From the NCBI GenBank assembly GCA_031972135.1, contig DALYFH010000004.1:228-36427 (forward strand): a DNA stretch of 36,200 nucleotides, read 5' to 3'. Within the stretch, counting starts at the first letter, position 1, and every line of letters begins with the position of its first letter. Shown here piece after piece: positions 7,187-21,510 of this stretch. Both the position numbers and the translations under genes were made by a program. Below the pieces are notes generated by a model that did not search any database, was not told the origin of the DNA, and saw only the letters and a list, made by a program, of their open reading frames with translations. The DNA comes from Candidatus Woesebacteria bacterium (GTDB lineage: Bacteria; Patescibacteriota; Microgenomatia; UBA1400; UBA12108).

Positions 7187-8371
7187 ATGTTTAACAAACT
7201 CTTCCCTAGTTTTGGTGTCAAAAATGTTCAACTATATTACCTCTTGGGAATCTTTCTAAACGGGTGGTTCATTTTACCCAACTGGGTCTTCTACTTTCGC
7301 CAACACATTACGACAACTCAAATCGGTCTAGTAGAAGGCGTAGCGGTCTTGGTTGGAATCCTTGTGGAGGTTCCAACAGGAGTCATTGCGGACACGTTAG
7401 GTAAAAAACGCTCTCTGATTGTGGGTAGTTTATTTCAAATCTTGTCTTGTCTTGTTCTGATAAACTCAACAACATTTCTACACTTTTTGATCGGCAATAT
7501 CTTGATGTTTATTGGATTTTCCTTCCATTCTGGTGCCTCCGAAGCCTTCGGCTACGATTCTCTTAAAGAGAAGGGGAGGGAGGCTCACTATGATCACGTA
7601 GTCGGGCGCTATAATTCGCTCTCTATTGCTGCAACTCTAATCTCGACTTTTATTGGCGGCTTTCTTTTTAGTCTCAATCCAACCTTTCCCTTTTATGCCT
7701 GGGTAATTTTCCTGTCTATGTCGCTTGTTGTACTCTCAAAAACTACCGAGCCCAAATTTGATAGTAAAAAGTTTGTTATCAAAGAATACTTAATACATTT
7801 AAAAGAGGGTGTTCTGACTCTCTTCGGTAGCCAATTACACAACTATATAATCCCCCTACTGTCTCTCCCAATAATTATTAAACTTTATCAGGGGTTAGTA
7901 CGCCAATCTATGGCTGGGTATTTTGGTTTTAGTGGTGAGACTTTTGGTTATCTTTTTGCTCTCGTATCTGTTCCAGCGATTCTCTTTTCATTTCGTTATG
8001 ACCAAATCCGCAAATATCTAGGTAATAAACATTTTCTCATCCTAGTGCTTGCAGGTTATAGTTTTATTTTTGGCATTGCCAAGACCGGATCTGGACTACT
8101 AGTTGGAGGCACAATATATTTATTCATAAATATTTTCGAAAACTTATCTCGTCCACTAGTTTCATCGATTATCAACGAGCGAATAGATTCTAAGCACCGA
8201 GCCACTACACTCTCAACCCTTGCCTTAATAACTCAAATTCCATACATATTTCTTGTAGTCTTCTTTGCTAATTTGACTGAGGAAAAGAATATTACAATTC
8301 TTTTCTCGATTTATTCGATAATAATGTTCGCTACTCTAATATATAGTTATCTATTCATAAAAAAAGAGTGA
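7187..8371 (+). CDS. MFS transporter
   Basis: 394 aa, about 12 TM. MFS motif A-like loop GVIADTLGKKRSL after TM2. Paralogous to ORF 16951-18141. Confidence 0.7.
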   Translation: MFNKLFPSFGVKNVQLYYLLGIFLNGWFILPNWVFYFRQHITTTQIGLVEGVAVLVGILVEVPTGVIADTLGKKRSLIVGSLFQILSCLVLINSTTFLHFLIGNILMFIGFSFHSGASEAFGYDSLKEKGREAHYDHVVGRYNSLSIAATLISTFIGGFLFSLNPTFPFYAWVIFLSMSLVVLSKTTEPKFDSKKFVIKEYLIHLKEGVLTLFGSQLHNYIIPLLSLPIIIKLYQGLVRQSMAGYFGFSGETFGYLFALVSVPAILFSFRYDQIRKYLGNKHFLILVLAGYSFIFGIAKTGSGLLVGGTIYLFINIFENLSRPLVSSIINERIDSKHRATTLSTLALITQIPYIFLVVFFANLTEEKNITILFSIYSIIMFATLIYSYLFIKKE

Positions 8372-8383
8372 TAATATAACCAC

Positions 8384-9259
8384 ATGGGAAAAATGTATTC
8401 AGGCTTAGCATCACTCTTGCTCGCTGGACTTCTTTTCGGATCTTTTGGTGTTTGGGTAAGACTGCTTTCCACAGACCTAAGTTCTTATCAGCAAATTGCT
8501 TTTCGCAATATTGTAGCTTTGGTGGTAGCCCTATCGATAGTCTTTTTCAAAAAAATCAAGCTATCATTCTCTGGAGTTCCCAAACAACATTTATTCCTTT
8601 TTGGACTTTCGTTTCCAACTGCAGTTGTTTTCTTTACGACTTCTGTCTTAAAAACATCAATAATGCTTAGTATTTTTTCCTTCTACTTTGGGTCTATTCT
8701 TGTCTCACTAATCTTAGGAATCTTGATATTTAAAGAAAAAATTACCACAATCAAACTACTGAGTCTTCTTACTGTTTTGTTTGGTTTTTATCTCCTCCTC
8801 CAACCAGAAGGAATAGTAAAGATAGATCAGGGCATGTTGTATGGCGTGCTCGCTGGCACCTTTGACACAATTTCCAATGTCTTTCGCAAACACTTAAGCG
8901 GCAAACTAGATAGGGTAGTATTGACCCTAGTTCCTCAGGTGGGCGGCCTTCTTGTTGCCACAGCTCTCATGGCATATTCGGGTAGTCTTGAAATGCCAGA
9001 GATCAGCTCGCTCAACTGGGTAGTTGGATTGGTCTTTGGGTCAATGATTTTTGCAATCAATTATTTAACTCTATATGGGTTTCAACACTTTGATCTGAAC
9101 CTAGGGACAATTGCGATTTCATCCGAAGTGGTTTTTGCTTCATTGTTTGGCTACCTAATTTTTGCCGAGACTCCAAGAATCTACGATGTCTATGGTGCTG
9201 CATTTATTGTATTGGCTATCGTCATTGGTAACTGGCCAGCTAGTGGGGCGCGCAAATAA
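8384..9259 (+). CDS. EamA/DMT-family transporter
   Basis: 291 aa, about 10 TM with a two-halves architecture typical of drug/metabolite transporters. TGaTAATAT lies 6 nt upstream of the ATG. Confidence 0.6.
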   Translation: MGKMYSGLASLLLAGLLFGSFGVWVRLLSTDLSSYQQIAFRNIVALVVALSIVFFKKIKLSFSGVPKQHLFLFGLSFPTAVVFFTTSVLKTSIMLSIFSFYFGSILVSLILGILIFKEKITTIKLLSLLTVLFGFYLLLQPEGIVKIDQGMLYGVLAGTFDTISNVFRKHLSGKLDRVVLTLVPQVGGLLVATALMAYSGSLEMPEISSLNWVVGLVFGSMIFAINYLTLYGFQHFDLNLGTIAISSEVVFASLFGYLIFAETPRIYDVYGAAFIVLAIVIGNWPASGARK

Positions 9260-9434: not shown

Positions 9435-10130
9435 ATGTCTACCTCTTTGTCGGTTAACCAGTTGCGTGCCTTTGTCGACTCAACTTCAAATCATGGCAAC
9501 CCCACGGGCATTATTCTCGATTTAGAGCAAAACTTTTCCCCCTCGCAGCGACAAACTATCGCGACCAAGCTTCACTTTACTGATACCGTCTTTGTGAACA
9601 GACTCGACTCCTTTATTGTTAGTTTCTTTAACCCTCAACAAGAAACAAAATTCGCCGGCGACGCCTTGATTAGCACTGCCTATTTTTCTAAACATGTATT
9701 AAAGCGAGATCTCTCGCTTGTCTCATGTAGGGGTGGGAATATTTCTACCTGGACAGACGACTCTGATCTAACCTGGATTGAAGCTAGTCTCAGGGGTACT
9801 CCAGGATGGCAGCATCTTGAGCTTCCAGACCCACGCGCGGTCAGGTCTATCACTCCGTCAGAAGCAGCGACCTATAAACATACCATGGTCTGGGCATGGG
9901 AAGACAAAAATCGGGGTACTATCGTCTCTCGCACCTTTCTCCTCGATTGGGGGACCCTCGAAGATCACGGTAATGGTTCTGGCTCGATGCAGCTAGCAGC
10001 CTCACTCGGCCGTCAGATTATGATTAAACAAGCTCAGGGTTCAGTGATATATGCTGCTCCCTCAGAAAATTGCAAGGCTAGGGTGGGCGGTCGAGTGGCA
10101 ATCGACCAAATAGTGACAATTACCGTTTAG
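9435..10130 (+). CDS. PhzF-family isomerase-like protein (compact)
   Basis: 231 aa. N-terminal AFVDSTSNHGNPTGIILD matches the PhzF F..F....GNP..V motif. The segment LHFTDTVFV sits where PhzF has L.SETAF, so Asp replaces the catalytic Glu by eye. The C-terminal GGRV strand is present. Confidence 0.5.
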   Translation: MSTSLSVNQLRAFVDSTSNHGNPTGIILDLEQNFSPSQRQTIATKLHFTDTVFVNRLDSFIVSFFNPQQETKFAGDALISTAYFSKHVLKRDLSLVSCRGGNISTWTDDSDLTWIEASLRGTPGWQHLELPDPRAVRSITPSEAATYKHTMVWAWEDKNRGTIVSRTFLLDWGTLEDHGNGSGSMQLAASLGRQIMIKQAQGSVIYAAPSENCKARVGGRVAIDQIVTITV

Positions 10131-10911
10131 TAGTTCCTTCTGCCATTCCCCACAACACCTCAAAAACTTGTCTTAGCATCTGTGCATATTCTGGGCTCAC
10201 GATTTCGATTCCGACCAGGTCATTTTTGTTATACCCAGAAAACTGCACGACATCGTCAACAATATGAATGTCCTGTGTGATATTAACCAAAGACTTAGAT
10301 ATTTCACGATGCTTATAGTGGTTTTTTAAGTATTTCAAGTTATCTGTCCACAAGCTGTCAGTGCTCGTGGTGTTAGAAAGCTCTCGCACTTGTAAATTTT
10401 TCTTCACTATTCTATGTCGTACATCTTCCGCAAATTCTCTCGAAAGAGACTTGTCCCACTGGTTTGAGTCAAATATAAGAATTTCACCAGATTTAGCCTG
10501 AGTAGTTTTTAGTTCTAAATGTTGTAATCCACGTATGCCTCGATAGAACTTAGTGCTTACTTCTAACGGTTTGGCTAGGTTAATAATCTCGAAATGCTCT
10601 TTCAGATTCGGAAGCATATTTCGCATCTCACTCGCTTGTCGCTCTTTCTCCAAGGCTAGATTTTCAAAATGATCGACCGATGAGGCAGAGTAATACGTAG
10701 TTTTGTCATCCAACTTCTGTTCCACCAATCCCTTCGCCAACAAGCTCTCAAGAATTCTGTACAGTGTGGTCCTTTTTATTGGACATTTCCTAGAAATCTG
10801 CAAAGCTGTCAACCAACCAAAGTTGATCAGTATTAAATATACCCCTACTTCTTTCTCACTCAGGCCAAAAGTAATTAAGATTTTATTTATTTCAGTATTG
10901 TCCACCATCAT
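10120..10911 (-). CDS. TrmB-family transcriptional regulator (paralog 1)
   Basis: N-terminal winged HTH FGLSEKEVGVYLILINFGWLTALQISRKCPIKRTTLYRILESLLAKGLV, a coiled linker, and a C-terminal domain shared with the 3 paralogs (FYRGIRGL ... VFEVLWGMAE). The ORF track starts at a TTG (10920). I prefer ATG 10911, which has TAAAAT 8 nt upstream. Confidence 0.7.
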   Translation of the reverse strand: MMVDNTEINKILITFGLSEKEVGVYLILINFGWLTALQISRKCPIKRTTLYRILESLLAKGLVEQKLDDKTTYYSASSVDHFENLALEKERQASEMRNMLPNLKEHFEIINLAKPLEVSTKFYRGIRGLQHLELKTTQAKSGEILIFDSNQWDKSLSREFAEDVRHRIVKKNLQVRELSNTTSTDSLWTDNLKYLKNHYKHREISKSLVNITQDIHIVDDVVQFSGYNKNDLVGIEIVSPEYAQMLRQVFEVLWGMAEGTTKR

Positions 10912-10917
10912 GGACAA
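10898..10917. promoter_or_regulatory. Candidate operator: inverted repeat TTGTCCA-N6-TGGACAA over the start codon of TrmB paralog 1
   Basis: Perfect 7-bp arms (10898-10904 and 10911-10917). The repeat spans the ATG ATG of the minus-strand regulator gene, inside a 48-bp divergent region. Confidence 0.3.
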
Positions 10918-10959
10918 CAATTTTACAACAGTTATTTGGTGTCGTAAAGTCTGCTCACT

Positions 10960-11904
10960 ATGAAAATAGTTATATTAACACCACGTGACGAGTACACAAA
11001 AACTCAGCAAGAAACACTCTCTACAATGGGGGAGGTTGTCTATACAGACAGTCGACGCGCATATTCGTTACAAGAACTATTAGATCTTACTAGGAATACA
11101 GATCTATTCGCTATAGACCCCGACAATCTTGGTGGATTTGAGCATTCTCCAGAAATAATCATTAAAATCCTCGCGCAAAACACCTCTATCAAGCATTTGG
11201 CTTTGAGCACCACCTCCTACGGCTACGTGAGTAAACAGTACTGTCAAAGTAGAGGAATTCAAGTGACAAACATCCCTCACTACTCCACTCAGTCGGTTGC
11301 AGAGTTGGCAATTTCTATGTTGCTAGGGTGCTCCAAACACATATTTTTAACAGATCGTGAGACTCAAAAAAACAATTATCAGCTCCACATGGGTCAGGAA
11401 GTTGGAGGTAAAACAATAGGAATAATCGGATTAGGTAGTATTGGCCAATGTACGGCTAAGCTGGCCCAGGGTTTGGGAATGAAAGTGATCGGCTGGAATA
11501 GGACGCAAAGAAGAGTAAGCGGAGTAAAAAACGTACCCCTCGACACATTGCTAAAACAATCAGATTTTATCTCGCTCCATCTCTCTGATGCTCCAGAAAC
11601 CGTCAACTTTATCAGTAAAACTCAGTTGTCTCAGTGTAAAAAAGGGGCAATCTTTACCAACGTATCAAGTAGAGATCTAGTTGATGAGGCTGAAATGGCT
11701 AAGGCTCTCAAATCAGGTCAAATAGCTAGCTATATATTCGAAGCCGAAGACTTTACCAATTCACCATTATTAGGTCTCACAAACGCCTTAATGTTTAAGG
11801 GTTTTGGTTGGTATACCAAAGAAGCTCTCGATCGCAACAAGAAGATCTGGGTGAAAAATATCATTTCATTAGTAAAAGGAAATCCGATAAACCAAGTCTA
11901 TTAA
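10960..11904 (+). CDS. D-isomer-specific 2-hydroxyacid dehydrogenase-family protein (catalytic His apparently missing)
   Basis: 314 aa. NAD-binding GKTIGIIGLGSIGQCTAKLAQGLGMKVIGWNR. The Arg/Glu region NVSSRDLVDEAEMAKAL is present. The usual N.(I/L)(L/I)TPH(I/L) segment reads NALMFKGFGWYTKEA. Confidence 0.75.
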   Translation: MKIVILTPRDEYTKTQQETLSTMGEVVYTDSRRAYSLQELLDLTRNTDLFAIDPDNLGGFEHSPEIIIKILAQNTSIKHLALSTTSYGYVSKQYCQSRGIQVTNIPHYSTQSVAELAISMLLGCSKHIFLTDRETQKNNYQLHMGQEVGGKTIGIIGLGSIGQCTAKLAQGLGMKVIGWNRTQRRVSGVKNVPLDTLLKQSDFISLHLSDAPETVNFISKTQLSQCKKGAIFTNVSSRDLVDEAEMAKALKSGQIASYIFEAEDFTNSPLLGLTNALMFKGFGWYTKEALDRNKKIWVKNIISLVKGNPINQVY

Positions 11905-11985
11905 TTTAAGTTACCCCGCTCTTGTGGGCCTCTTGCTTGTGCTTCCCTCAGCAATCTATCTCTCCAATCAAATCAAGTCAGAAGC

Positions 11986-12792
11986 CTAAGTCTTTCTCTC
12001 AAACCCCCTATATTTCTCCGGCAATTTAGAATTCTCCGCCAGGTTCCATAGTGTATTCCAGATACTCCGCTGTGTCTCTGCCATTTTCTCATTCTCTATC
12101 TCCACTCCAAACACATCGTTGTTCTCCCAGTAATAAATGGCGACCACATTGTTATAAATATCCAGGTTGTGCGAAAGCTTCATGACCGAGTCGGGTAGAT
12201 ATCTCCAGCCACTTTTGTTTATATGGATACGCTCAAATCCAGGCGCGTCCATACTCTTCAGAAACTCGTCACTACGCAAGTCCTTGGTGACTATCCCATT
12301 CTTTTCTATCTGAGTAACCCATTGTTTAAAGAACGCGACCCCCGCGACCTCTTCCATATTCCGGTAGGTATATCCTAGGATCTCTCCCTTCGCTTTTGTC
12401 TCATTCCACATGATCTGCTTGATCCCTGCAATTCCTCGGTAGTATCTGACCTGTGTCGACTTGATCTCTGGCAGTTGCGAGATCTCTTTCTCAAACTCGG
12501 GAAAATTTTCTTCAAGCTCTTTTACTCTGCGCTTTTCTTGCTCGACCATCAGCTTTACTTGCTCTGGCTCTGCGGCCCGTATCCGCCTAGATTTATGCTC
12601 TAGAACCTCTTCAATTAATCCTCGCTCTGCGAGTGTCTCTATTTGCCTATAAAGTGCCGTCCGCTCTATTCCCGTGGCTCTACTGGCCTCTAGGATAGTC
12701 AGAGGACCTTTTGCCACGAGCACCCCAAACAGTCGCACTGCCTCTTCATCAAACCCCAATTTACTCAAATAATCCTCAATAGTTTTACTCAT
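11986..12792 (-). CDS. TrmB-family transcriptional regulator (paralog 2)
   Basis: wHTH LGFDEEAVRLFGVLVAKGPLTILEASRATGIERTALYRQIETLAERGLI. Shared C-terminal motifs YYRGIAGI and IWNTLWNLAE. TATAAT (12801-12806, minus strand) lies 8 nt upstream of the ATG. Confidence 0.75.
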   Translation of the reverse strand: MSKTIEDYLSKLGFDEEAVRLFGVLVAKGPLTILEASRATGIERTALYRQIETLAERGLIEEVLEHKSRRIRAAEPEQVKLMVEQEKRRVKELEENFPEFEKEISQLPEIKSTQVRYYRGIAGIKQIMWNETKAKGEILGYTYRNMEEVAGVAFFKQWVTQIEKNGIVTKDLRSDEFLKSMDAPGFERIHINKSGWRYLPDSVMKLSHNLDIYNNVVAIYYWENNDVFGVEIENEKMAETQRSIWNTLWNLAENSKLPEKYRGFERKT

Positions 12793-12853
12793 CTGTGCAC
12801 ATTATACACAACAAGTATCCAACATTTCCTGAGTAGATATATAATCTGTGCAT

Positions 12854-13702
12854 ATGACTTGGTTAATTCTTGCCCTAATGGCTCTCGTTACATTCGTAAT
12901 ATATGACGTTCTTGGTCGTTACATTGCCACAAGATCAGAAAATCCTCAAGTATTTGCCACTATCTACAACGCGAGCGTCGCCATCATCGCCCCCATACTC
13001 TTTGTATTTGATAACACCACTCCCTCTAATCTCGCACCCCAAGTAATCGGCCTTACTGTGGTTGGACTTATTTTGTGGGGATTACACGGTAGGTATGAGT
13101 ATTTCGCCAAAAAGCACACTGAGGCATCGGTTTTTACCATTACCATGAAAATCGCTCCAGTGATAAATTTTTTCTTATCCTTATACTTTCTCAAAGAAGC
13201 AGCCACTATTACTAAGTTTATTGGAATTACTCTCATAATCGTTGCAAATTTATTGCTTTATCTCGGGAACAAGGGCAGGATTATTAGCAAGCAGGGGCTT
13301 CGATATACTCTATTTCTCGCCATTAACATTTCCTTTGCCTGGTTATTCGATACCATCAATATCAAATATTGGGGAGTTGCCACATTTAGCATTATTTCAT
13401 TCGCCTTCGGAGCGCTTATTAGTGGGACATTCCCTCTGGTAAAGATATCCGACATTCGCCGTGAAATAGTCCTCACTCCTCTTTGGCAGTTCTTTCTCTT
13501 GGGGAGCTTCAATCTGATAGGCTATGCTTTCATGCTTAAGGCACTTTCACTCGGCCCAGCTAGCAATGTGATGCCAATTGTTACCTCGACCACTCCATTT
13601 GTGGTTTTGGCTGGCATTATTTTCCTAGGCGAAAGAGACTATCTCTGGAGAAAGCTTTTTGCCGCGATTCTTACCGCCATCGCAGTCTACCTCATGCGCT
13701 AA
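12854..13702 (+). CDS. EamA/DMT-family transporter
   Basis: About 282 aa, about 10 TM. The ORF track starts at GTG 12848. ATG 12854 lies 8 nt downstream of TATAAT (12840-12845). Confidence 0.6.
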   Translation: MTWLILALMALVTFVIYDVLGRYIATRSENPQVFATIYNASVAIIAPILFVFDNTTPSNLAPQVIGLTVVGLILWGLHGRYEYFAKKHTEASVFTITMKIAPVINFFLSLYFLKEAATITKFIGITLIIVANLLLYLGNKGRIISKQGLRYTLFLAINISFAWLFDTINIKYWGVATFSIISFAFGALISGTFPLVKISDIRREIVLTPLWQFFLLGSFNLIGYAFMLKALSLGPASNVMPIVTSTTPFVVLAGIIFLGERDYLWRKLFAAILTAIAVYLMR

Positions 13703-13722
13703 TTTCGTTTATAATATCCTCA

Positions 13723-14457
13723 ATGCAAGATTCCTATCCGAAAATATTCGAAGATAAGTCAAACATTATGTTTGTCTTTGCCCACCCCGATGACGCCGAG
13801 ATCTACTGTGGCGGATTGATTACACGCCTCGTACAAGATGGCAAAAAAGTCAAACTAGTCAAAATGACGACAGGCAACAAAGGTTCTCGCGCTCAACAAA
13901 TAACAGAGGAAGAGCTAGCCAAAACTCGCGAATCCGAAGATCAAGAAGCCCTCAAAACTCTCGGCCTAACGTTAAACGATAGCGTTAATCTGAATCTCGG
14001 CGATGGAGAGATAGAGAATAATCTAAGGACTATTGGCCTACTGGTCAAAGAAATCCGCACTTTTAAGCCTGACTTAATAGTCACCCACAACCCCGAAAAA
14101 ACTCTAATCCGTGATCTAGACGGGGGATACTACGTCAACCACCGCGACCACAGACACACAGCCGAAGTGGCTGTCGATGCCGCCTATCCCTACAGTCGAG
14201 ATCTTCTTTTCTACCCCGAACACATAAAAGAAGGGCTCTCGGGTCACTCCTGTTCAGAGTTTCTTTTTGTCGACTCGTGGGGACACGAAGATACGATTTA
14301 TATTGATATTACCGATCAAGAGAAGATCCGGACCCAGGCGATCGCGTGCCACAAATCTCAATATTCTCAAGAGAATGCTCAAGGCTCCACTGACTTTTTT
14401 GCCCCAGATAAAGATGGGAAGCGCTATGAACAATTTCGCTATGTCGTCGCCGACTGA
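13723..14457 (+). CDS. PIG-L/LmbE-family N-acetylglucosaminyl deacetylase
   Basis: 244 aa. Zinc-site motifs VFAHPDDAEIYCGG and VNHRDHRHT (H.DH). Confidence 0.85.
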   Translation: MQDSYPKIFEDKSNIMFVFAHPDDAEIYCGGLITRLVQDGKKVKLVKMTTGNKGSRAQQITEEELAKTRESEDQEALKTLGLTLNDSVNLNLGDGEIENNLRTIGLLVKEIRTFKPDLIVTHNPEKTLIRDLDGGYYVNHRDHRHTAEVAVDAAYPYSRDLLFYPEHIKEGLSGHSCSEFLFVDSWGHEDTIYIDITDQEKIRTQAIACHKSQYSQENAQGSTDFFAPDKDGKRYEQFRYVVAD

Positions 14458-14594
14458 TCATTCGTCGCTGGATCAATACCTTCCCAGACTATAACCAAAT
14501 CGCCTGATCAATAACATTCCCATACATATAATATAAACGAGTCTCCACGCTTTCTTTACAATACATTAATAATCTCTTGGTTTATAATTACCTG

Positions 14595-15074
14595 ATGGAC
14601 AGTCAGTACAAATACTCAACCATTAAGAAATATCAACTAAAAGAGCTAGGTTCCGTGTATGCCGAGTGCTTCAATCTAGCAGACATCGGAGAGCACTGGA
14701 GTGATAAAGCTGCAACTGATTTTTTGACCTATTTATGGAAAATACAACCAGACATGTTTTACATTGCATCTTCTGAAGGAAAGATTATTGCTGGAATAGC
14801 TGGAATAATTAAACCCTGGTGCGATGGCAATCACATACATGAGATTGAACTATTTGTTCATCCAGAACACCAAAAAAGAGGAGTGGCCTCCGAACTTACA
14901 AAATTATTAGTTCAAAAAGCCCTAACCACACACTCTATAGTTGAATTTGAGGGCATAGCCGACGGCAAGCTCCATAGCTTCCCCCTCAGTTGGTATAAAC
15001 GTCTCGGCATCAACCCTACTGGCCTAATCCACATATCTGGAAAACCAAATGAAATGTTAAAGAAATTATCTTAG
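14595..15074 (+). CDS. GNAT-family N-acetyltransferase
   Basis: About 159 aa. Acetyl-CoA-binding motif A VHPEHQKRGVASELTKLLV (Q/R..G.A). The track start is TTG 14577. ATG 14595 lies 6 nt downstream of TATAAT (14583-14588). Confidence 0.7.
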   Translation: MDSQYKYSTIKKYQLKELGSVYAECFNLADIGEHWSDKAATDFLTYLWKIQPDMFYIASSEGKIIAGIAGIIKPWCDGNHIHEIELFVHPEHQKRGVASELTKLLVQKALTTHSIVEFEGIADGKLHSFPLSWYKRLGINPTGLIHISGKPNEMLKKLS

Positions 15075-15103
15075 AAATTCCATTGAATCGATAAACCAAA
15101 ACA

Positions 15104-15682
15104 CTACCACGCAAGACGTCTTTTTCTCCCCAAGATCATCACGACGCTCACTATATTTATTATAAAAATGTATATCGGAAAGACTAGATTACTAAGAGAA
15201 AATACTCCAATCGACAAAATACTAAAGAAACTTGCCACGACATCTGACATATAAAATTTCCACTCTTCTGTGTCTGGATACTTCCACATCTTAATCAAGG
15301 TTGGTACAAAGCCAATAAAATCCGTCACAATCGACATAATCAAGCCTAATAGAGGATTATTGGTCGTTTGCCATACGATCAAAGACACTATCGCCATCGC
15401 AAAAACAATCCAATCTAGCCGATTGTTTCCACCCATTCCTCGCTTGAGAGATAGATAAAAAAGAACAGCACTCCCCAGGAGTTGTGCGCTCGCCATATAA
15501 ATAGAATTTCGGTCGCCTTGAGCATACAGGGTTCCAACAAATAAGAGAGATACCAGGAAAATAAGGAATCTAGTCATTCTCTGGGGTCGGAAACTCCCCT
15601 TAATCACACTAGTCACGCCGATAATTGGCGACACAAATCCTACAACTATTGAGAATATTAAAAATAAATTAGTGGTAATCAT
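15104..15682 (-). CDS. 7-TM membrane protein with 3+1+3 internal-repeat topology (SWEET/PQ-loop-like?)
   Basis: 192 aa with seven hydrophobic segments. The loops after TM1 (SVIKGSFRPQRMTRF) and TM5 (TLIKMWKYPDTEEWKF) resemble each other, which suggests an internal duplication. Gene call is fair; family assignment is weak. Confidence 0.55.
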   Translation of the reverse strand: MITTNLFLIFSIVVGFVSPIIGVTSVIKGSFRPQRMTRFLIFLVSLLFVGTLYAQGDRNSIYMASAQLLGSAVLFYLSLKRGMGGNNRLDWIVFAMAIVSLIVWQTTNNPLLGLIMSIVTDFIGFVPTLIKMWKYPDTEEWKFYMSDVVASFFSILSIGVFSLSNLVFPIYIFIINIVSVVMILGRKRRLAW

Positions 15683-15691
15683 AAACAGTTA

Positions 15692-16042
15692 TTAAGCTCG
15701 ATTTTGTAGACGAACAATTTCAGCTCTCCCAAGCATACAGTAATCTTGAGCTCGTTTTAAGAGAAATCCCCCATGATTCATCCAGGTCTCAGAAGATATT
15801 CCCAATTGTGCAGATTGTATATCAACACTCTCAACTAACTTAGCTAAAATACTCACCAACTCTAATATCGAGTAATATCTCATAGCACCATGTGCTTCTA
15901 GATCAGGCTCTAGCTTTTTGCGTGACTCAAAATCAATTCGTTTTATTGCCATGCCACCAACAAGCATTAAATCCTGTACATCATTTAATAATCCTTCTTG
16001 CCCAGGTATCAGATTCAATAATGGTTTATCTAATTCAGTCAT
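15692..16042 (-). CDS. Hypothetical protein (116 aa), no recognisable family
   Basis: I moved the start to ATG 16042 (MTELDK...) because AGGAGG lies 4 nt upstream on the minus strand. The gene is 9 nt upstream of the 7-TM gene and probably cotranscribed with it. Confidence 0.55.
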   Translation of the reverse strand: MTELDKPLLNLIPGQEGLLNDVQDLMLVGGMAIKRIDFESRKKLEPDLEAHGAMRYYSILELVSILAKLVESVDIQSAQLGISSETWMNHGGFLLKRAQDYCMLGRAEIVRLQNRA

Positions 16043-16093
16043 AACTCCTCCTTTTTCTTGCATTCTGTCACAAACCTGCTAATATTCAATCTG

Positions 16094-16903
16094 ATGTCCG
16101 AAAAAACAGACACTATCATTTCTCTCCTCACCCAGTTTGGAGTGAGTGAGGTAGAAGCCAAAATATACCTGGAGATTTTATCGGGAAAGGCAGATACCGC
16201 TCTCTCGATTTCTCGCAATATTAAACTAGCAAGAACAAAGGTGTATAGATTATTAGACAATTTGCTAGTTAAAAAATTAATCGTGACCATGGTAGGGGAG
16301 CGGGGAATGCGCTTTGTCGCCTCGCCTCCCGACCAGCTCGACTTCCTCCTTTTAGATTGTGAGCACGAACTAGAGAAGCTCCGCCACACTCTCCCTACGC
16401 TCCAATCCGAATTATCGGGCTTAAGTGGAGTATCTCCCAAGTCACAAGTTCTCTACTATCATGGTGAGGATGGTCTCAAACAAGTCACGTACAACTCTTT
16501 AAAAGCAAAAGGAGAACTCCTTACCTACGAACTCTCAACTATGAATGCTTTTATGGATCAGGTAGAAGCCGAGAAACTAAGACAGCGATTTGTTAACAAC
16601 AAAATCAAGATCCGCACTCTTACCAATGCTAATAAAGTAGAGCCATATACCAATGTCACCGATCTTGTAGAAAAATATTGGGACATCCGGCACCTCAATC
16701 CCAAGGACAAACCCTTCCAGTTTGAGATCCTCATCTACAACGACGTTTATTGTATGTATAAATACTCGGGGAATGACATTTTTTGTGTCGAGATACACTC
16801 ACAAGAACTCGCCGATATGCAGCGCCAGCTTTTTGAATATCTATGGTCTGGAGCCAAAAAATTCAAAATCCTAGACTCTCAAGGAACTGCTGAGCTAGGA
16901 TGA
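16094..16903 (+). CDS. TrmB-family transcriptional regulator (paralog 3)
   Basis: wHTH FGVSEVEAKIYLEILSGKADTALSISRNIKLARTKVYRLLDNLLVKKLI. Shared motifs YYHGEDGL and LFEYLWSGAK. I moved the start to ATG 16094, which has TGcTAATAT 8 nt upstream and avoids overlapping the divergent gene. Confidence 0.7.
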   Translation: MSEKTDTIISLLTQFGVSEVEAKIYLEILSGKADTALSISRNIKLARTKVYRLLDNLLVKKLIVTMVGERGMRFVASPPDQLDFLLLDCEHELEKLRHTLPTLQSELSGLSGVSPKSQVLYYHGEDGLKQVTYNSLKAKGELLTYELSTMNAFMDQVEAEKLRQRFVNNKIKIRTLTNANKVEPYTNVTDLVEKYWDIRHLNPKDKPFQFEILIYNDVYCMYKYSGNDIFCVEIHSQELADMQRQLFEYLWSGAKKFKILDSQGTAELG

Positions 16904-16950
16904 TGTAAAAGCGCAACACAACAATTCGAGTATTAAGTTTTCAGCTGACG

Positions 16951-18141
16951 TTAGTTAGTAGTTTTGACATGCAATAATCGATATCCCAGATACGGCACCA
17001 TCATAATACTGAGTAAACCAAGTAGGCTATATATTAGCCTCGTGTCCCCGTACTTGCCCATGACCAGTCCAGCCAAGACTACCCCCAAGATATAGATAAC
17101 ACTAATTGCCATAGATAAGGCAGAGATCGCAGTTGCCCGATATTTAGAAGAAAAAACCGCATTCGTATATTTACCAAGTAGTATCCACCGAGCTGTCGAG
17201 GCCATCATCGCCATCCCCACAAACGGGACTCCCCAGTATCCCTGTAGCCACCACCCAGGTAGGAGTGCCATAGACATAATGATCGGAAAGAATATTATTG
17301 TCCGGCGAAAATCAAATAACTTTTCTTGTGTCAAAAGCTTAGCTATCACAACCACATTGACCAGTCTAAGTGCTGCCGCAATCATCCCACGCTCTTCTCC
17401 GCCAAAACCGAGGGTAATCAGCATCGAATCATTAAAATAGGTGGCACATAGCCAGGTAATCGACCCAACCGCTATGTAGTACAGCGACATGTCACGGTGC
17501 TTTTGGGACTTAAACGCTTCTATCGCTCCCCACTTTATCTGGCGCAGGTAATTACGCAAACCAAACTTCTCACTATCTATTGTTGGCTCAACAAAGCGTG
17601 TGGCGTATATCCCTGCACACAATACCGCAAAAGACGAAGCTAGGTATGGCAGGGCCACCCACCAGCTCGCCATAAACCCACCGAGCAGTGTCCCAGTCAT
17701 TAGTCCTATCTGGAACCACTTTCCCATTTTTGCCATCACTGACTGAAACTCCGACTCTCGTTTTTCTTGTTTGAGCGAGTCATATACCAGTGCCTCGAGC
17801 GACCCAGAGCGCAGAGCCTCAGCAGTCCCAGACAAAACTGAGAGGATAGCAAATTGGGGGAATGTAATCGCAAATGCAAACAACCCATATTGCACAAAGT
17901 CGATGATGTGACCCAAAATAACAGTTTTCCGTCTCCCGATTAGGTCAGCTAGCGCTCCCGTTGGCAACTCTAGGATGAGCTGGGTGGCAAATCCGATTGC
18001 AAGATACATTGAGATCTGCGGGATAGTTATTCTCTCTTGTAGATATGCAATCCAGACGGGGATCGTAAAAACCAAACTCCTAAACCCCTCGGTATAAAAG
18101 AAGGTTTGTATATTCCGGTCTGCTATCTTGGTTATTGCCAT
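16951..18141 (-). CDS. MFS transporter (paralog of 7187-8371)
   Basis: 396 aa, about 12 TM. Motif A-like GALADLIGRRKTV. TACAAT (18149-18154, minus strand) lies 7 nt upstream of the ATG. Confidence 0.75.
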   Translation of the reverse strand: MAITKIADRNIQTFFYTEGFRSLVFTIPVWIAYLQERITIPQISMYLAIGFATQLILELPTGALADLIGRRKTVILGHIIDFVQYGLFAFAITFPQFAILSVLSGTAEALRSGSLEALVYDSLKQEKRESEFQSVMAKMGKWFQIGLMTGTLLGGFMASWWVALPYLASSFAVLCAGIYATRFVEPTIDSEKFGLRNYLRQIKWGAIEAFKSQKHRDMSLYYIAVGSITWLCATYFNDSMLITLGFGGEERGMIAAALRLVNVVVIAKLLTQEKLFDFRRTIIFFPIIMSMALLPGWWLQGYWGVPFVGMAMMASTARWILLGKYTNAVFSSKYRATAISALSMAISVIYILGVVLAGLVMGKYGDTRLIYSLLGLLSIMMVPYLGYRLLHVKTTN

Positions 18142-18156
18142 GAGAGTTATTGTAAC

Positions 18157-18939
18157 TTAACTTACTCGATATGAATCTAGCAAAGACTGATCTACTTCTC
18201 CCCAGTGCAGCGCCTCAGCTTGTCTATATGCTATCCGCTCGACTCTATTAGCATCCCTTATCTCAGGATGATACTGTCCGTTAAATATGGCTGTTAGTCT
18301 ATTGTCGTCATCGAAGAAGACCGTGGATCTACTAGTGTTATCGGGGTAACGCGAAAACACCTCAACCTCAACTTGGCTCAACACTCGACCATAGGTACGT
18401 AAATCAGCATAACTAGGAATACTTAACCCTCCAATTAAAGGATTATTTAACTTGTTCTTGTTGGTTCTGTAAGGATTAATCTCCCAACTACGTGATGCAT
18501 GCATCCACAATCCATCACTATTTGAAGAGTCAATTGGTCCTACCCAGTTTCGTTTTTCCCACGCAGGCAGTGACATTAAGTCCTTGTAGCTTGCTTTTAC
18601 TTCGCGGGTATATGGCAACGATTTATGTTTCATCTCTACCCTTACCCTCCATGGCTTAGAAGAGTCGAATGTACGGTTTCTCCAATATTCACCTGTATTC
18701 TCACCAGATATTGATATGTCTGCAAAATGTTTCTCAAGTGAACTAGCATAGTCTTCTTGTCTCATTGGCCTAACTGAAGTTAATATGGTCGCCAGGTTTA
18801 GTCGATCATGACCCTCAGCCTCCCAAAGGTGATATCTACAATCAGGGTAGGTGAGTATATCCAATATTAAGGGAGCTACTTCATATGAAAAAATAATTGG
18901 AATATCACCCAATGCGTCTGTTTCAGGGGTAGGTCTCAT
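18157..18939 (-). CDS. Hypothetical cytoplasmic protein (260 aa), Trp-rich, no recognisable family
   Basis: Long ORF with AAGGAG 5 nt upstream of the ATG. No signal peptide or TM. It lies 15 nt upstream of the MFS gene. Confidence 0.65.
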   Translation of the reverse strand: MRPTPETDALGDIPIIFSYEVAPLILDILTYPDCRYHLWEAEGHDRLNLATILTSVRPMRQEDYASSLEKHFADISISGENTGEYWRNRTFDSSKPWRVRVEMKHKSLPYTREVKASYKDLMSLPAWEKRNWVGPIDSSNSDGLWMHASRSWEINPYRTNKNKLNNPLIGGLSIPSYADLRTYGRVLSQVEVEVFSRYPDNTSRSTVFFDDDNRLTAIFNGQYHPEIRDANRVERIAYRQAEALHWGEVDQSLLDSYRVS

Positions 18940-19038
18940 TTATTCTCCTTAGTTGCTCGTATCCTACCCCCCTGCTATACTAAGTGTCAAAAGTGACGAT
19001 CACTGTCGTCAGTAAATAACAGTAGGGGAGTGAAGAGT

Positions 19039-19917
19039 ATGGATTATGAGCAAAGAACGATCGATGTCTTAAAAAAATTTGGTTTGTCAGACAATGAAGC
19101 CATTGTTTATCAAAAGGCAATCGAACTCGGCGAAACTTCGCCGTTCAAAATCGCCAAAGCGACCGGGATCGCTCGTACCACAGTCTACGCCGTCTTAACC
19201 GATCTAGCTCTCAAGGGCTTGGTCGAACTAGAGAGTGCAACGGGTCTAATGAAGCAACAAACTAAGGTAATAGCCAAAAACCCCAGTGTCCTTAGAGAGA
19301 TTATTCACGCCAAACAAAAATCACTCAGCGCTCAAGAGGTTGATATTGTCGAGATTCTCCCTTGGCTAAAAAAAGAATATCTCAAAGGCGAGGCAGATTC
19401 TGACTTTCAGTTTTTCCCAGGTATGGAGGGTGCCAACTACGTCATGTTTGACTATGACGGTGTCGGTGAGGACTCCTATGTTTTTGACTACCAAGTCCCG
19501 ATGGATGCGACCGGCGGGAAAGAAATGAACAAAGGGGTTGATCGGGGAATCAGGAAGCGTGTGGGAGGGACGGGGATTGAGTACAATCTGACCCCAATGA
19601 CCGATTGGACCAAACATGTCCTCAGTTACCAGGTCGAGCGCAATCCCCACTACCTAGACCGCGCCCAGTTTCGCTATCTCCCATTTGAGATGCAAAACTT
19701 TAACGTCATGGTCCGACTCAAGGGTGATCGTGTCTGGATAGTCTCAGTTAAAGATAAGGAGGTCTGGGGCATCAAAATCAGAAGCAGCAATCTCGCAAGC
19801 TCTCTGATCTCTCTCCACCAAGCACTCTGGAAGATGGCAAGTCCCGTTACCAAAGACATGATCGAATCCTGGATGCCCAATCCCTATCTCCGAGCAGAAA
19901 AAGCTAAAGATCGCTAA
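19039..19917 (+). CDS. TrmB-family transcriptional regulator (paralog 4, most divergent)
   Basis: wHTH FGLSDNEAIVYQKAIELGETSPFKIAKATGIARTTVYAVLTDLALKGLV. C-terminal LHQALWKMA. The track start is GTG 19030. ATG 19039 is preceded by an AGGGGAG Shine-Dalgarno. Confidence 0.65.
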   Translation: MDYEQRTIDVLKKFGLSDNEAIVYQKAIELGETSPFKIAKATGIARTTVYAVLTDLALKGLVELESATGLMKQQTKVIAKNPSVLREIIHAKQKSLSAQEVDIVEILPWLKKEYLKGEADSDFQFFPGMEGANYVMFDYDGVGEDSYVFDYQVPMDATGGKEMNKGVDRGIRKRVGGTGIEYNLTPMTDWTKHVLSYQVERNPHYLDRAQFRYLPFEMQNFNVMVRLKGDRVWIVSVKDKEVWGIKIRSSNLASSLISLHQALWKMASPVTKDMIESWMPNPYLRAEKAKDR

Positions 19918-19927
19918 AATATAAGAT

Positions 19928-20440
19928 ATGGACGAATTAGTCGACATAATTGATATCTCTAAAGTAGTTGTGGGCACAGTTCCCAAGTCACAAGCTCACA
20001 AAGAAGGGCTGCTTCATAAAACTGTTATTTCTCAGCTCATAAATAGCCGTGGAGAATTTTGTTTTGTCCGCCAGTCTGGGGAGAAACAAGATTCGGGCCA
20101 GTTTGTGAGCCCTGTTGGTGGCCATGTTAGTGCAGGTGAGACTGATGAGGAAGCCTTAATCCGCGAATGTCAGGAGGAGTGTGGCCTCACTCCAATAGAT
20201 TACAAACTGATAGGTACAACTATTTATAATCGCGAAGTGATTGGCCGAAAAGAGAATCACTTCTTCGTTGTCTACGAGATCTATACAGATCAAGATCCCA
20301 TCCTCAACCACGAATCAGTCGAGTTTAAAAAGTTCAGCAAACAAAAGATTAAATCACAAGTCCAATCAAACCCAGCCTACTTTGGTGATGCCTGGCACCA
20401 CGTCTTTAAGACTTTTTACCCGTCAATCTACAATTCCTAG
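19928..20440 (+). CDS. Nudix hydrolase
   Basis: 170 aa with a complete Nudix box GGHVSAGETDEEALIRECQEECGL (G.5E.7REU.EE.GU). Confidence 0.85.
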   Translation: MDELVDIIDISKVVVGTVPKSQAHKEGLLHKTVISQLINSRGEFCFVRQSGEKQDSGQFVSPVGGHVSAGETDEEALIRECQEECGLTPIDYKLIGTTIYNREVIGRKENHFFVVYEIYTDQDPILNHESVEFKKFSKQKIKSQVQSNPAYFGDAWHHVFKTFYPSIYNS

Positions 20441-20444
20441 TTTA

Positions 20445-20464
20445 TTGCGCGATAGTTGCGCGAT
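20445..20464 (+). repeat. Tandem direct repeat TTGCGCGAT x2 (11-bp phase) just upstream of the fic -10 box
   Basis: Copies at 20445-20453 and 20456-20464, GC-rich in an AT-rich spacer. TGtTATAAT follows at 20467-20475. Confidence 0.4.
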
Positions 20465-20481
20465 TATGTTATAATTAACAC

Positions 20482-21510
20482 ATGTTTAATCCAAAATACC
20501 AGATTACCGATCAAATACTAGCCTGGTTATCAGATATTGCCGAAATTCGTGCTAAAATCGCGCATGCCAAACTACTCCCAGTCCGAGAAACTATATTACG
20601 TCGTCGGGCAATTATAAGAATGACGCATAGTAGTACCAGTATCGAAGGCAACACTCTGTCCGAAGAAGAGGTTGAAAAAGTCGCCTCCAAGCAACCAGTA
20701 TTGGTACCAAATCAAGATCGACTAGAAGTCGAAAATTATCTCAAAGCACTCGAAGTAGTTAACCAGCTCGCTACCAAGTCTAGTATTACCTTGCCACACC
20801 TCCTCTCACTCCATCGTCATACAATGCAGGGGCTCTTGCCCTCTGCCAAAACTGGCGTACTTCGAAATGGCCCAGTCTACATAGTCAACACTCGTCTCGG
20901 CAGGCGAGATGAAATAGTATACACCCCTCCCTCTGCAGACCAAGTGCAAGCTCTCATCAAAAATTTGTTTTCTTGGCACAATTCTGCCAGCAATGTTCAT
21001 CCAGTTATCCGTGCTGGTATTTTACACTTCCAGTTTGAGTCTATTCACCCTTTTCCTGACGGCAATGGTCGCGTAGGTCGCCTCCTAACCCTACTATCCC
21101 TTTACCAGTCCGGGTGGGATTTCCGTCGTGGCTTAGTGCTAGAGGAGTATTACAACCTCGATCGCTCCTCTTACTACCAAGCACTAAAAGAAGGTAGAGA
21201 CGACTTGACCTCTTGGCTTACCTATTTTATCCAAGGTTTTTGGGTCGAAGCACTTCAGCTTCAAGAATCAGTTAACTCACTACTAGCCGGTACTGGTTCT
21301 CTCCATGATCGTAAACTAGATACTTCTGATCTCAAAATTATCGATTTTGTTTTAACACTGGGCAAAGTTAGTAGTAATGACGTGAGCGATATTCTCTCTG
21401 TTCCACTTCGCACAGCACAGTCACGGCTCTCACGTCTAGTAAAATACCAAATTTTGCGCCGTCTCGGATCTGGCCGTGCCACTTACTACAAAATACCAAA
21501 GGTGGGGTAA
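20482..21510 (+). CDS. fic: Fic/DOC-family protein (AMPylase-type, intramolecular inhibitory helix, C-terminal wHTH)
   Basis: 342 aa. Canonical Fic motif HPFPDGNGRVGR. N-terminal STSIEGN matches the (S/T)...E(G/N) autoinhibition motif. The C-terminal LRTAQSRLSRLVKYQILRRLGSGRATYY is wHTH-like. Confidence 0.9.
   Translation: MFNPKYQITDQILAWLSDIAEIRAKIAHAKLLPVRETILRRRAIIRMTHSSTSIEGNTLSEEEVEKVASKQPVLVPNQDRLEVENYLKALEVVNQLATKSSITLPHLLSLHRHTMQGLLPSAKTGVLRNGPVYIVNTRLGRRDEIVYTPPSADQVQALIKNLFSWHNSASNVHPVIRAGILHFQFESIHPFPDGNGRVGRLLTLLSLYQSGWDFRRGLVLEEYYNLDRSSYYQALKEGRDDLTSWLTYFIQGFWVEALQLQESVNSLLAGTGSLHDRKLDTSDLKIIDFVLTLGKVSSNDVSDILSVPLRTAQSRLSRLVKYQILRRLGSGRATYYKIPKVG

Follow-up and report, generated by a model that had tools for sequence, protein, structure and literature searches.

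A 36,200-nt stretch of a Candidatus Woesebacteria genome (contig DALYFH010000004.1; hereafter the window) carries, within 9.8 kb, four genes for TrmB-family transcriptional regulators, which we call R1 to R4. Each is transcribed divergently from a small group of transporter, enzyme or orphan genes. The host is a Woesebacteria/Microgenomates bacterium of the candidate phyla radiation (CPR). A first-pass annotation had described the region as a modular, duplicating island of regulators and cargo; we followed it up with profile searches, structure prediction and comparison with related loci.

The four regulators and their fold

R1 (263 aa; 10120–10911, minus strand), R2 (268 aa; 11986–12792, minus strand), R3 (269 aa; 16094–16903, plus strand) and R4 (292 aa; 19039–19917, plus strand) were all present in a six-frame list of open reading frames (ORFs) where the first-pass annotation had placed them, and their ATG starts are backed by the conserved N-termini of orthologs. 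The N-terminal TrmB-type winged helix-turn-helix (wHTH) proposed for them was recovered by Pfam profile PF01978 at E values of 3.6e-14 (R1), 1.2e-9 (R2), 2e-9 (R3) and 5.5e-12 (R4), with scores of 37.6–52.8 bits where the cut-off is 25.6. Relatives already carry the name 'TrmB family transcriptional regulator' at NCBI. Past the first ~80 residues, the remaining ~180 gave no Pfam match for any of the four. The genes are clustered rather than evenly spread, as had been expected: a family profile run against the window ORFs found no other member in the remaining 26 kb.

Homology extends beyond the wHTH. The C-terminal halves alone of R1, R2 and R3 match one another at blastp E = 6e-14 to 7e-20; that of R4 is more distant (E = 2e-3 to R1, 8e-6 to R2, 0.11 to R3), yet R4 can be aligned with its paralogs from end to end and is also recovered by the joint profile. 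Overall pairwise identity is 20–29% (BLASTP). Two C-terminal motifs had been reported as shared by all. L-W-x-x-A, near the C-terminus, is indeed invariant in the four-way alignment; YYRG/YYHG stands for three paralogs (as FYRG, YYRG and YYHG) and fails for R4, which has FFPG. Also invariant are R-T-x-x-Y in the recognition helix and G-x-x-G after the F/Y-Y/F-x-G strand. The tyrosine of R-T-x-x-Y (Y51 in R1 numbering, Tyr50 in Pfu TrmB) is retained by the four paralogs and by 26 relatives; the residue adjacent to it (Asp51) is not conserved, R or A taking its place.

Related loci (numbered from L001) were collected for comparison. A profile search of genome contigs, run with R4-type sequences only, found R4-type genes in 15 reference metagenome-assembled genomes labelled Woesebacteria, Microgenomates or unclassified 'bacterium'; 80 further loci came from a metagenome scan, and ~100 related loci were compared overall, with flanks limited to 10 kb per side. 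L001, L004, L005, L010–L012 and L015 are clearly CPR-type loci and are publicly labelled 'uncultured Pseudomonadales bacterium', apparently a taxonomic error.

Single-linkage clustering at ≥38% identity placed R1, R2, R3 and R4 in four separate orthogroups (OG-R1 to OG-R4) of 7, 12, 83 and 21 members; a fifth group has no member in the window. R1 orthologs are 53–74% identical and R4 orthologs, in the 15 reference genomes, 60–98%. R3 has at least 120 homologs at 46–84% identity, and OG-R3 is the most widespread orthogroup. Because these highly diverged copies fall into separate orthogroups, each found in other genomes, the array is an assembly of ancient lineages and not the product of recent tandem duplication, so 'duplicating' was the wrong word for it.

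A profile built from the four copies found its best PDB sequence match in the archaeal protein TrmBL2 (5bpd/5box), over profile positions 5–196, well past the wHTH. We modelled R3 with AlphaFold2 from 26 relatives (pLDDT 89, pTM 0.70). The model consists of the wHTH, one long helix (residues 79–110) right after the wing, and an alpha/beta domain; what had been called a charged coiled linker is this single helix. Foldseek aligned the model with TrmBL2 (5bpd/5bpi) over its full length (E = 4e-14, 271–278 columns, TM-score 0.51–0.56), with MepR and MarR structures among the weaker wHTH matches. The R3 C-terminal domain alone matched the phospholipase-D (PLD) fold at E = 4e-7 to 1e-3 (Nuc, 1byr; NucT, 6ehi; the SauUSI N-domain; BfiI; PLD), with target-normalised TM-scores of 0.6–0.66 for Nuc and NucT. 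Unlike those enzymes, it lacks the HKD motif: a regex search for HxK(x)4D found it in none of the four paralogs, and no C-domain alignment column is ≥80% His, Lys or Asp. Judged by these residues, the domain (~150 aa) is therefore catalytically dead, not a PLD-superfamily enzyme. Its conserved residues include E141, E160, R163, T186, E233 and Q245 (R3 numbering).

The regulators are thus best described as TrmB-family members with a TrmBL2-type architecture (wHTH, coiled coil, single PLD-like domain), predicted by the model for R3 and by homology for R1 and R2; an R4 model from a shallow 16-sequence alignment (pLDDT 43) was discarded. A search with the C-domain only, in 1.84 billion representatives, returned 2,273 clusters at 50% identity, 533 of them at E ≤ 1e-10, nearly all with the length and layout of the regulators here.

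Whether these are ligand-domain regulators, as first proposed, is unproven. They have a single PLD-like domain, and the effector domain PF11495 gave no match at E ≤ 0.1 in any of the four. The NCBIfam equivalog models for TrmB and TrmBL1 matched only the N-terminal 60–120 residues, far below their cut-offs. At 263–292 aa, against 338–341 aa for TrmB and TrmBL1, the proteins are too short for a second subdomain of the effector-binding domain (EBD). In TrmB, six of seven sugar contacts lie in that second, beta-barrel subdomain, with Gly320 and Glu326 among its contact residues; TrmBL2 also lacks it (PMC4158304).

Some full-length family members stand divergent from proteins of 136–139 aa (L019 3790–4206, L006 5351–5770, L049 1655–2065); these either give weak scores against the TrmB-family profile or make up a separate small family, and may be stand-alone wHTH partners.

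Divergent partners and chromosomal setting

Pfam confirmed the cargo identities. R1 faces a gene for a D-isomer-specific 2-hydroxyacid dehydrogenase-like protein (2HADH; 314 aa; 10960–11904, plus strand; PF02826 at E = 1e-39, PF00389). R2 faces an EamA/DMT transporter gene, EamAb (12848 or 12854 to 13702; PF00892), followed by genes for a PIG-L-family deacetylase (13723–14457; PF02585) and a GNAT acetyltransferase (14577–15074; PF00583), all on the plus strand; the same order stands opposite the R2 ortholog in L002, where only a fragment of the GNAT gene is left. Opposite R3, on the minus strand, lie a 116-aa orphan (15692–16042), preceded by a GGAGG Shine-Dalgarno sequence, and a 192-aa multi-transmembrane protein (15104–15682). 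The pair recurs in L002, and the 185–201-aa membrane family that includes the 192-aa protein directly faces OG-R3 in six other loci. Opposite R4 are a 260-aa orphan (18157–18939, minus strand) and the MFS transporter MFSb (16951–18141, minus strand; MFS_1 at E = 5e-20), an MFS gene being kept near R4 in most loci. The four spacers measure 48, 55 (61 if EamAb starts at the ATG at 12854), 51 and 99 bp, in keeping with the divergent layout first described. No Pfam or NCBIfam family was found for the 116/123-aa, 192-aa and 260-aa proteins; the 192-aa family gave a weak match to PnuC/NMN-transporter profile PF04973 over most of its length (E = 0.39), in only two of six members.

As the first-pass annotation had supposed, the divergent layout is not a chance arrangement. 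A divergent upstream neighbour was present in 107 of the 119 family members with enough upstream sequence. After dereplication at 90% identity, 80 of 89 clusters had one, compared with 31% (214/691) of the other genes in these loci, the background rate (binomial p = 4e-31). Cargo throughout the family is mostly DMT or MFS transporters and small-molecule enzymes, and each orthogroup has its usual partner: EamA for OG-R3 (34 of 64 judgeable members, with regulator identity down to ~40%), a 257-aa C45/AAT Ntn hydrolase and then MFS for OG-R4, Zn-ADH(-EamA) or EamA for OG-R2, and MFS for OG-R1, as in L016–L021 next to TPR-L25. Other partners in the family are 2HADH, SDR, an NNMT-type methyltransferase, the 185–201-aa membrane family and several orphans.

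The further idea that regulator and cargo move strictly as units was not borne out, because the first divergent gene opposite R1 (2HADH), R3 (the 116-aa orphan, then the 192-aa membrane protein) and R4 (the 260-aa orphan) is not the usual one of its orthogroup. R4 keeps its MFS gene just beyond; 2HADH stands opposite OG-R1 only in the window, and in L011 it is another paralog that has a 2HADH-like gene opposite it. Since these window partners are atypical, the linkage is statistical and modular rather than rigid.

The slot directly divergent from R4 has at least five unrelated occupants across loci: the C45 hydrolase in 12 loci, the 260-aa orphan in the window and L104, a 177–199-aa family in four loci, a 220-aa orphan in L008, and MFS directly in L005. 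Throughout these occupants, the slot promoter, the operator-like palindrome described below and the Shine-Dalgarno region are conserved. The 260-aa orphan has only five homologs (67–86% identity) in a 5.8-billion-protein database; it is unrelated to the C45 hydrolase, of which it had been considered a possible diverged form (hhalign probability 0.6%). The pattern of sequence conservation suggests that genes have been replaced next to a control region that stayed fixed, and this would be the most unusual aspect of the locus.

The array occupies a variable stretch between the L25/TPR genes and a block of R4, Nudix and the valyl-tRNA synthetase gene (ValRS). R4 is a fixed syntenic anchor, always near ValRS in the 15 reference genomes: it is followed by Nudix (sometimes also Fic and an acyltransferase) and then ValRS, and is usually preceded by the divergent gene and one or two MFS genes. 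Between L25/TPR and R4, gene content varies among close relatives. L003 is without R1–R3 there, L002 has the order R2-EamA-PIG-L-(GNAT remnant), 7TM-orphan, R3-EamA-MFS, and L006, L009 and L011 hold other subsets of the array. The EamA and MFS genes directly downstream of R3 in L002 are orthologous to a pair that lies upstream of R1 in the window, in the opposite order; because order and place differ, the region must have been rearranged.

Such arrays come back at one variable chromosomal site: 2–4 paralogs are found together at the same L25/TPR–ValRS site, in close relatives only. Most loci with R3 identity ≥62% hold 2–3 family members, and at ≤54% most are single-copy in 20 kb. In the more distant L016–L021, 3–4 family members stand beside TPR-L25-DUF4012, and yidC and dnaA follow ~9 kb further on. 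Because the left flank of the window is syntenic with this dnaA-linked TPR-L25 stretch, the array is probably origin-proximal, with the variable stretch some 10–25 kb from dnaA by synteny. On the plus strand, GC skew stays below zero over nearly all of the window, irrespective of gene orientation, and becomes positive only past ~34 kb, a course not reconciled with that position. GC content is 0.37–0.40 in parts of the array stretch and 0.44–0.50 in the rest of the window.

Compact arrays were also seen in other loci. Three family members lie back to back within 2.3 kb in L103 (2–2328). L020 (3–10285) has a four-member array in ~10.3 kb beside TPR-L25, consisting of an R4-type gene truncated where the locus ends and members of the fifth orthogroup, OG-R2 and OG-R1; four-copy arrays thus recur with different membership.

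Ten nt downstream of R4 is a Nudix hydrolase gene (19928–20440, plus strand; PF00293 at E = 3e-13), probably co-transcribed with it. Nudix directly follows R4 in 6 of the 15 reference loci and in L104, and lies within ~2 kb downstream in three more; in the window a terminator-like hairpin (20444–20464) stands past it. A Fic/DOC-family gene (20482–21510) comes next, before the acyltransferase gene. It occurs in some close relatives and is missing from L001, L004, L005 and L013; L006 and L009 each have a second Fic-like gene (~30% identity) upstream of R4.

Three plus-strand genes upstream of R1, identified by Pfam, have no regulator of their own: MFSa (7187–8371), an EamA gene (8384–9259) and a PhzF-like gene (231 aa, 9435–10130). 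The first two had been called paralogs of the cargo transporters. This is so for MFSa, 25.5% identical to MFSb (E = 2e-34); the two EamA proteins share a Pfam family only, with no BLAST match. The PhzF-like ORF matches only positions 3–99 of the 281-position Pfam model and may be truncated or highly diverged; its 3' end overlaps that of R1 by 11 bp.

Control regions and candidate operators

The candidate operator of R2 is a palindrome, TGTGTA-TAATG-TGCACA in minus-strand reading (12794–12810), that overlaps the -10 box TATAAT; 1 nt separates its end from the ATG. TGTG-N9-CACA is present in 6/6 unique OG-R2 upstream regions, three of which have the exact TGTGCA-N5-TGCACA, and the consensus, TGTGYA-N5-TGCACA, overlaps the -10 box directly before the ATG. 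The palindrome occurs once in the window, where 0.18 matches are expected by chance. It lies within an 18-nt inverted repeat (12789–12806 / 12840–12857) that mirrors TATAAT, 8 nt with TGTGCA, and ATG onto the EamA side. This mirror image suggests that EamAb starts at 12854.

The R4 control region (18953–19011) contains two overlapping divergent promoters and a different palindrome. The R4 promoter reads TTGCTC-17-TATACT (18953–18981, plus strand). The opposing one, on the minus strand, reads TTGACA (18990→18985), 18 nt, TAGGAT (→18961), with TATAGT as its -10 box in relatives, and is the best consensus promoter match in the region. An invariant block, TGTCAAAAGTGACGATCACTGTCGTCA (18985–19011), contains the palindrome TGACGA-N6-TCGTCA (18994–19011), which is found in 15–17 of 19 unique OG-R4 sequences. 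Like that of R2, it occurs once in the window; it follows the predicted R4 start site and stands directly upstream of the divergent -35 box. In 15/15 loci, the ~100 bp of DNA before R4 keep 80–97% identity, though the R4 protein falls to 60%. A riboswitch or attenuator was considered for the conserved block and rejected: no Rfam family was found in the window, and the fold of the R4 leader RNA is not significant (z = -1.4). At least two paralogs, R2 and R4, thus have distinct conserved palindromic candidate operators, which agrees with the diverged specificities first suggested.

Directly before the R4 coding sequence, L007 carries a tandem duplication (2239–2508) of the R4 promoter/operator together with a 63-aa 5' fragment of the gene. 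R4 itself may be disrupted there: its match is 1,078 bp long, where other loci have ~880 bp, and its main ORF encodes 236 aa.

Spacers 1 and 3 yielded promoter-like sites. A consensus scan of spacer 1 (10912–10959, 48 bp) found two that overlap face to face, TTTACG-17-TAAAAT for R1 (10948→10920, minus strand) and TTTACA-17-TAAAGT for 2HADH (10922–10950, plus strand), each -10 box ending 8–9 nt before its ATG. The R1 -10 position and ATGATGGTG start are conserved in L016 and L019. The R3 promoter region, TCTTGCATTCTGTCACAAACCTGCTAATATTCAATCTG (16053–16093, plus strand), has TTGCAT, ~16–17 nt, and TAATAT, with the -10 box ending 8 nt before the ATG. It is conserved in L001, L002, L006 and L011 whatever the divergent gene, and its geometry appears in nearly all of 69 unique OG-R3 upstream regions (loci L022–L103). 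No exact inverted repeat of ≥6 nt was found in spacers 1 and 3 beyond AATATT. The first-pass annotation saw a different symmetric motif in each spacer; this held for spacers 2 and 4, whose inverted repeats are conserved in orthologous loci, and not for the other two. The imperfect symmetry of spacer 1 would arise because its face-to-face promoters overlap, not because of an operator.

The -10-like hexamers end 7–8 nt before the ATG of R1, R2 and R3, as they do in nearly all of the 69 unique OG-R3 upstream regions, 9 nt before that of 2HADH and 8 nt before that of EamAb (if it starts at ATG 12854). No Shine-Dalgarno sequence was found before any of them. Boxes so close to the ATG, with no Shine-Dalgarno sequence, suggest that R1–R3 and several partner genes are expressed as leaderless mRNAs from fully overlapping face-to-face promoters in spacers of 36–61 bp.

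Proposed local regulation and its alternatives

We consider it probable that the locus is an array of four anciently diverged, local one-component regulators controlling divergent cassettes. Homology, fold, synteny, orientation bias, and the conserved promoter and palindrome elements are observed and speak for it; DNA binding at the candidate operators, repression or activation, and any ligand are inferred. Each regulator, as a dimer or higher oligomer, would bind a private palindrome of ~17–18 bp in the shared bidirectional control region, and would thereby regulate both itself and the divergent transporter/small-molecule-enzyme cassette. With overlapping face-to-face promoters, RNA polymerase could work in one direction at a time, and one bound regulator could control both.

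At R2, the palindrome would cover the regulator's own -10 box and start site, with a half-site at the same place in the mirror-image EamA promoter; binding should then shut off both genes. At R4, the palindrome would lie at ~+10 to +27 of the regulator's own transcript, predicting autorepression of R4-Nudix. It abuts the upstream edge of the divergent -35 box, from where repression and activation of the slot gene and MFS operon would both be possible, because the effect of TrmB-family proteins depends on site position: repression if the site is at or after the start site, activation if it is upstream (PMC4158304). As to the signal, a small molecule at the PLD-like domain might release the regulator. 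This is plausible by analogy with TrmB and TrmBL1 and from the cargo, and is the least supported step; a role in handling host-derived small molecules would be speculation.

Known systems offer partial precedents. TrmB and TrmBL1 (Tgr) of Pyrococcus and Thermococcus share PF01978 with its recognition-helix Tyr and coiled-coil dimerisation; they lie beside transporter operons and are autoregulated, and the family's Thermococcales glycolytic motif, TATCAC-N5-GTGATA, has the geometry of the R2 candidate (PMC4158304). They differ from the regulators here in having PF11495 and the second EBD subdomain, which carries Asn305–Glu326, in serving sugar ABC transporters rather than DMT/MFS transporters and redox or tailoring enzymes, and in using archaeal BRE/TATA promoters rather than bacterial sigma-70-type machinery. 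In layout, the modules resemble TetR-tetA and MarR-type pairs (MepR-mepA), with a divergent regulator and transporter, a short shared control region, overlapping promoters and a palindromic operator. Those belong to other protein families with another sensor domain, whereas here several modules of one family are stacked at a single site.

Several observations weigh against local, operator-specific control. The closest structural relative, TrmBL2 (PF0496 / TK0471 of Thermococcales; 5bpd/5box/5bpi/5bqt), is an abundant chromatin protein of archaea with no known ligand, which binds DNA non-specifically in coding and intergenic regions alike (PMC4158304), and the regulators lack the sugar-binding subdomain of TrmB. 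Three of the four in the window face an atypical first gene, and their coupling to cargo may be weak or may have been rewired recently. A search for exact palindromes found none common to OG-R1 (only three unique sequences) or OG-R3, and the conserved upstream blocks of R1 and R3 may be promoters only. E. coli-type consensus promoter matches are no more frequent in the region than in shuffled sequence; what speaks for the promoter calls is conservation across loci.

The first of these points could be taken further, to the view that R1–R4 are TrmBL2-like nucleoid-associated proteins or global repressors with little sequence preference and no ligand, whose transporter neighbours say nothing about their targets. 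TrmBL2 is the best structural match, with the same length class (~264 aa) and domain order, and partner genes are often swapped. We judge this quite unlikely: identity to TrmBL2 is only 15–18%, four highly diverged bacterial paralogs are unlike a generic chromatin protein, their orientation bias towards a divergent neighbour is extreme, and at their own promoters R2 and R4 have conserved private palindromes of TrmB-operator geometry, beside divergent cargo. A milder objection grants sequence specificity and autoregulation and holds that the divergent neighbours are not targets, the layout reflecting packing in a plastic region, with regulons elsewhere. The control regions of R4 and R3 are in fact kept where the divergent gene is a different one, the conserved positions lie mainly on the regulator side of the spacer, and the operator motif scan covered the 36-kb window only. 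Yet two genes could not be controlled independently from spacers of 36–61 bp whose promoters overlap fully, OG-R3 keeps EamA over the wide range of regulator identity given above, and the TGTGCA half-site recurs at the same position in the EamAb promoter; we find this objection unlikely to be right. A very improbable account makes the 10-kb stretch a horizontally acquired mobile genomic island that brought in regulators and cargo together. It would suit the differing gene content between L25/TPR and R4 in close relatives, the somewhat lower GC of parts of the stretch, and the genomic islands reported as common in Patescibacteria (PMC12455944). Against it, each regulator has orthologs at the same chromosomal site in several relatives, with R4 as a fixed syntenic anchor; no flanking tRNA was found, and among the proteins scanned none was an integrase, a transposase or a recombinase (no search for boundary repeats was made).

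Within the preferred reading of local control, a more far-reaching version is conceivable, which we hold to be improbable as it stands: that the apparently origin-proximal L25/TPR–ValRS stretch is a dedicated plasticity zone, in which the regulators, with their fixed bidirectional and largely leaderless promoter-operator units, serve as docking points where cargo is exchanged exactly at the start codon. If so, the zone would be a cassette-swapping sense-and-transport platform, with a ligand-responsive role for the PLD-like domain, and the family could be a dominant small-molecule sensor in an otherwise regulator-poor CPR genome.

The protein family and its architecture are already known. The literature that we searched held no account of TrmB-family proteins in a CPR setting, as a stacked array at a recurrent variable site, with operators at base-pair level or with leaderless overlapping promoters. 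No work joining TrmB and Patescibacteria was found there, and a study of horizontal transfer in Patescibacteria does not deal with the family specifically (PMC12455944).

CPR bacteria, or Patescibacteria, are uncultivated and have very small genomes, and to our knowledge almost nothing has been learned about their gene regulation. The locus overturns no current knowledge. It does give testable units: two operators predicted to the base pair, predicted leaderless overlapping divergent promoters, and four comparable paralogs. It places the TrmBL2-type architecture, known from an archaeal chromatin protein, in a local-regulator-like setting in bacteria, and it marks a recurrent variable region with turnover of transporter and tailoring-enzyme genes. 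Its value is as an entry point to gene regulation in the CPR and to the role of the PLD-like domain.

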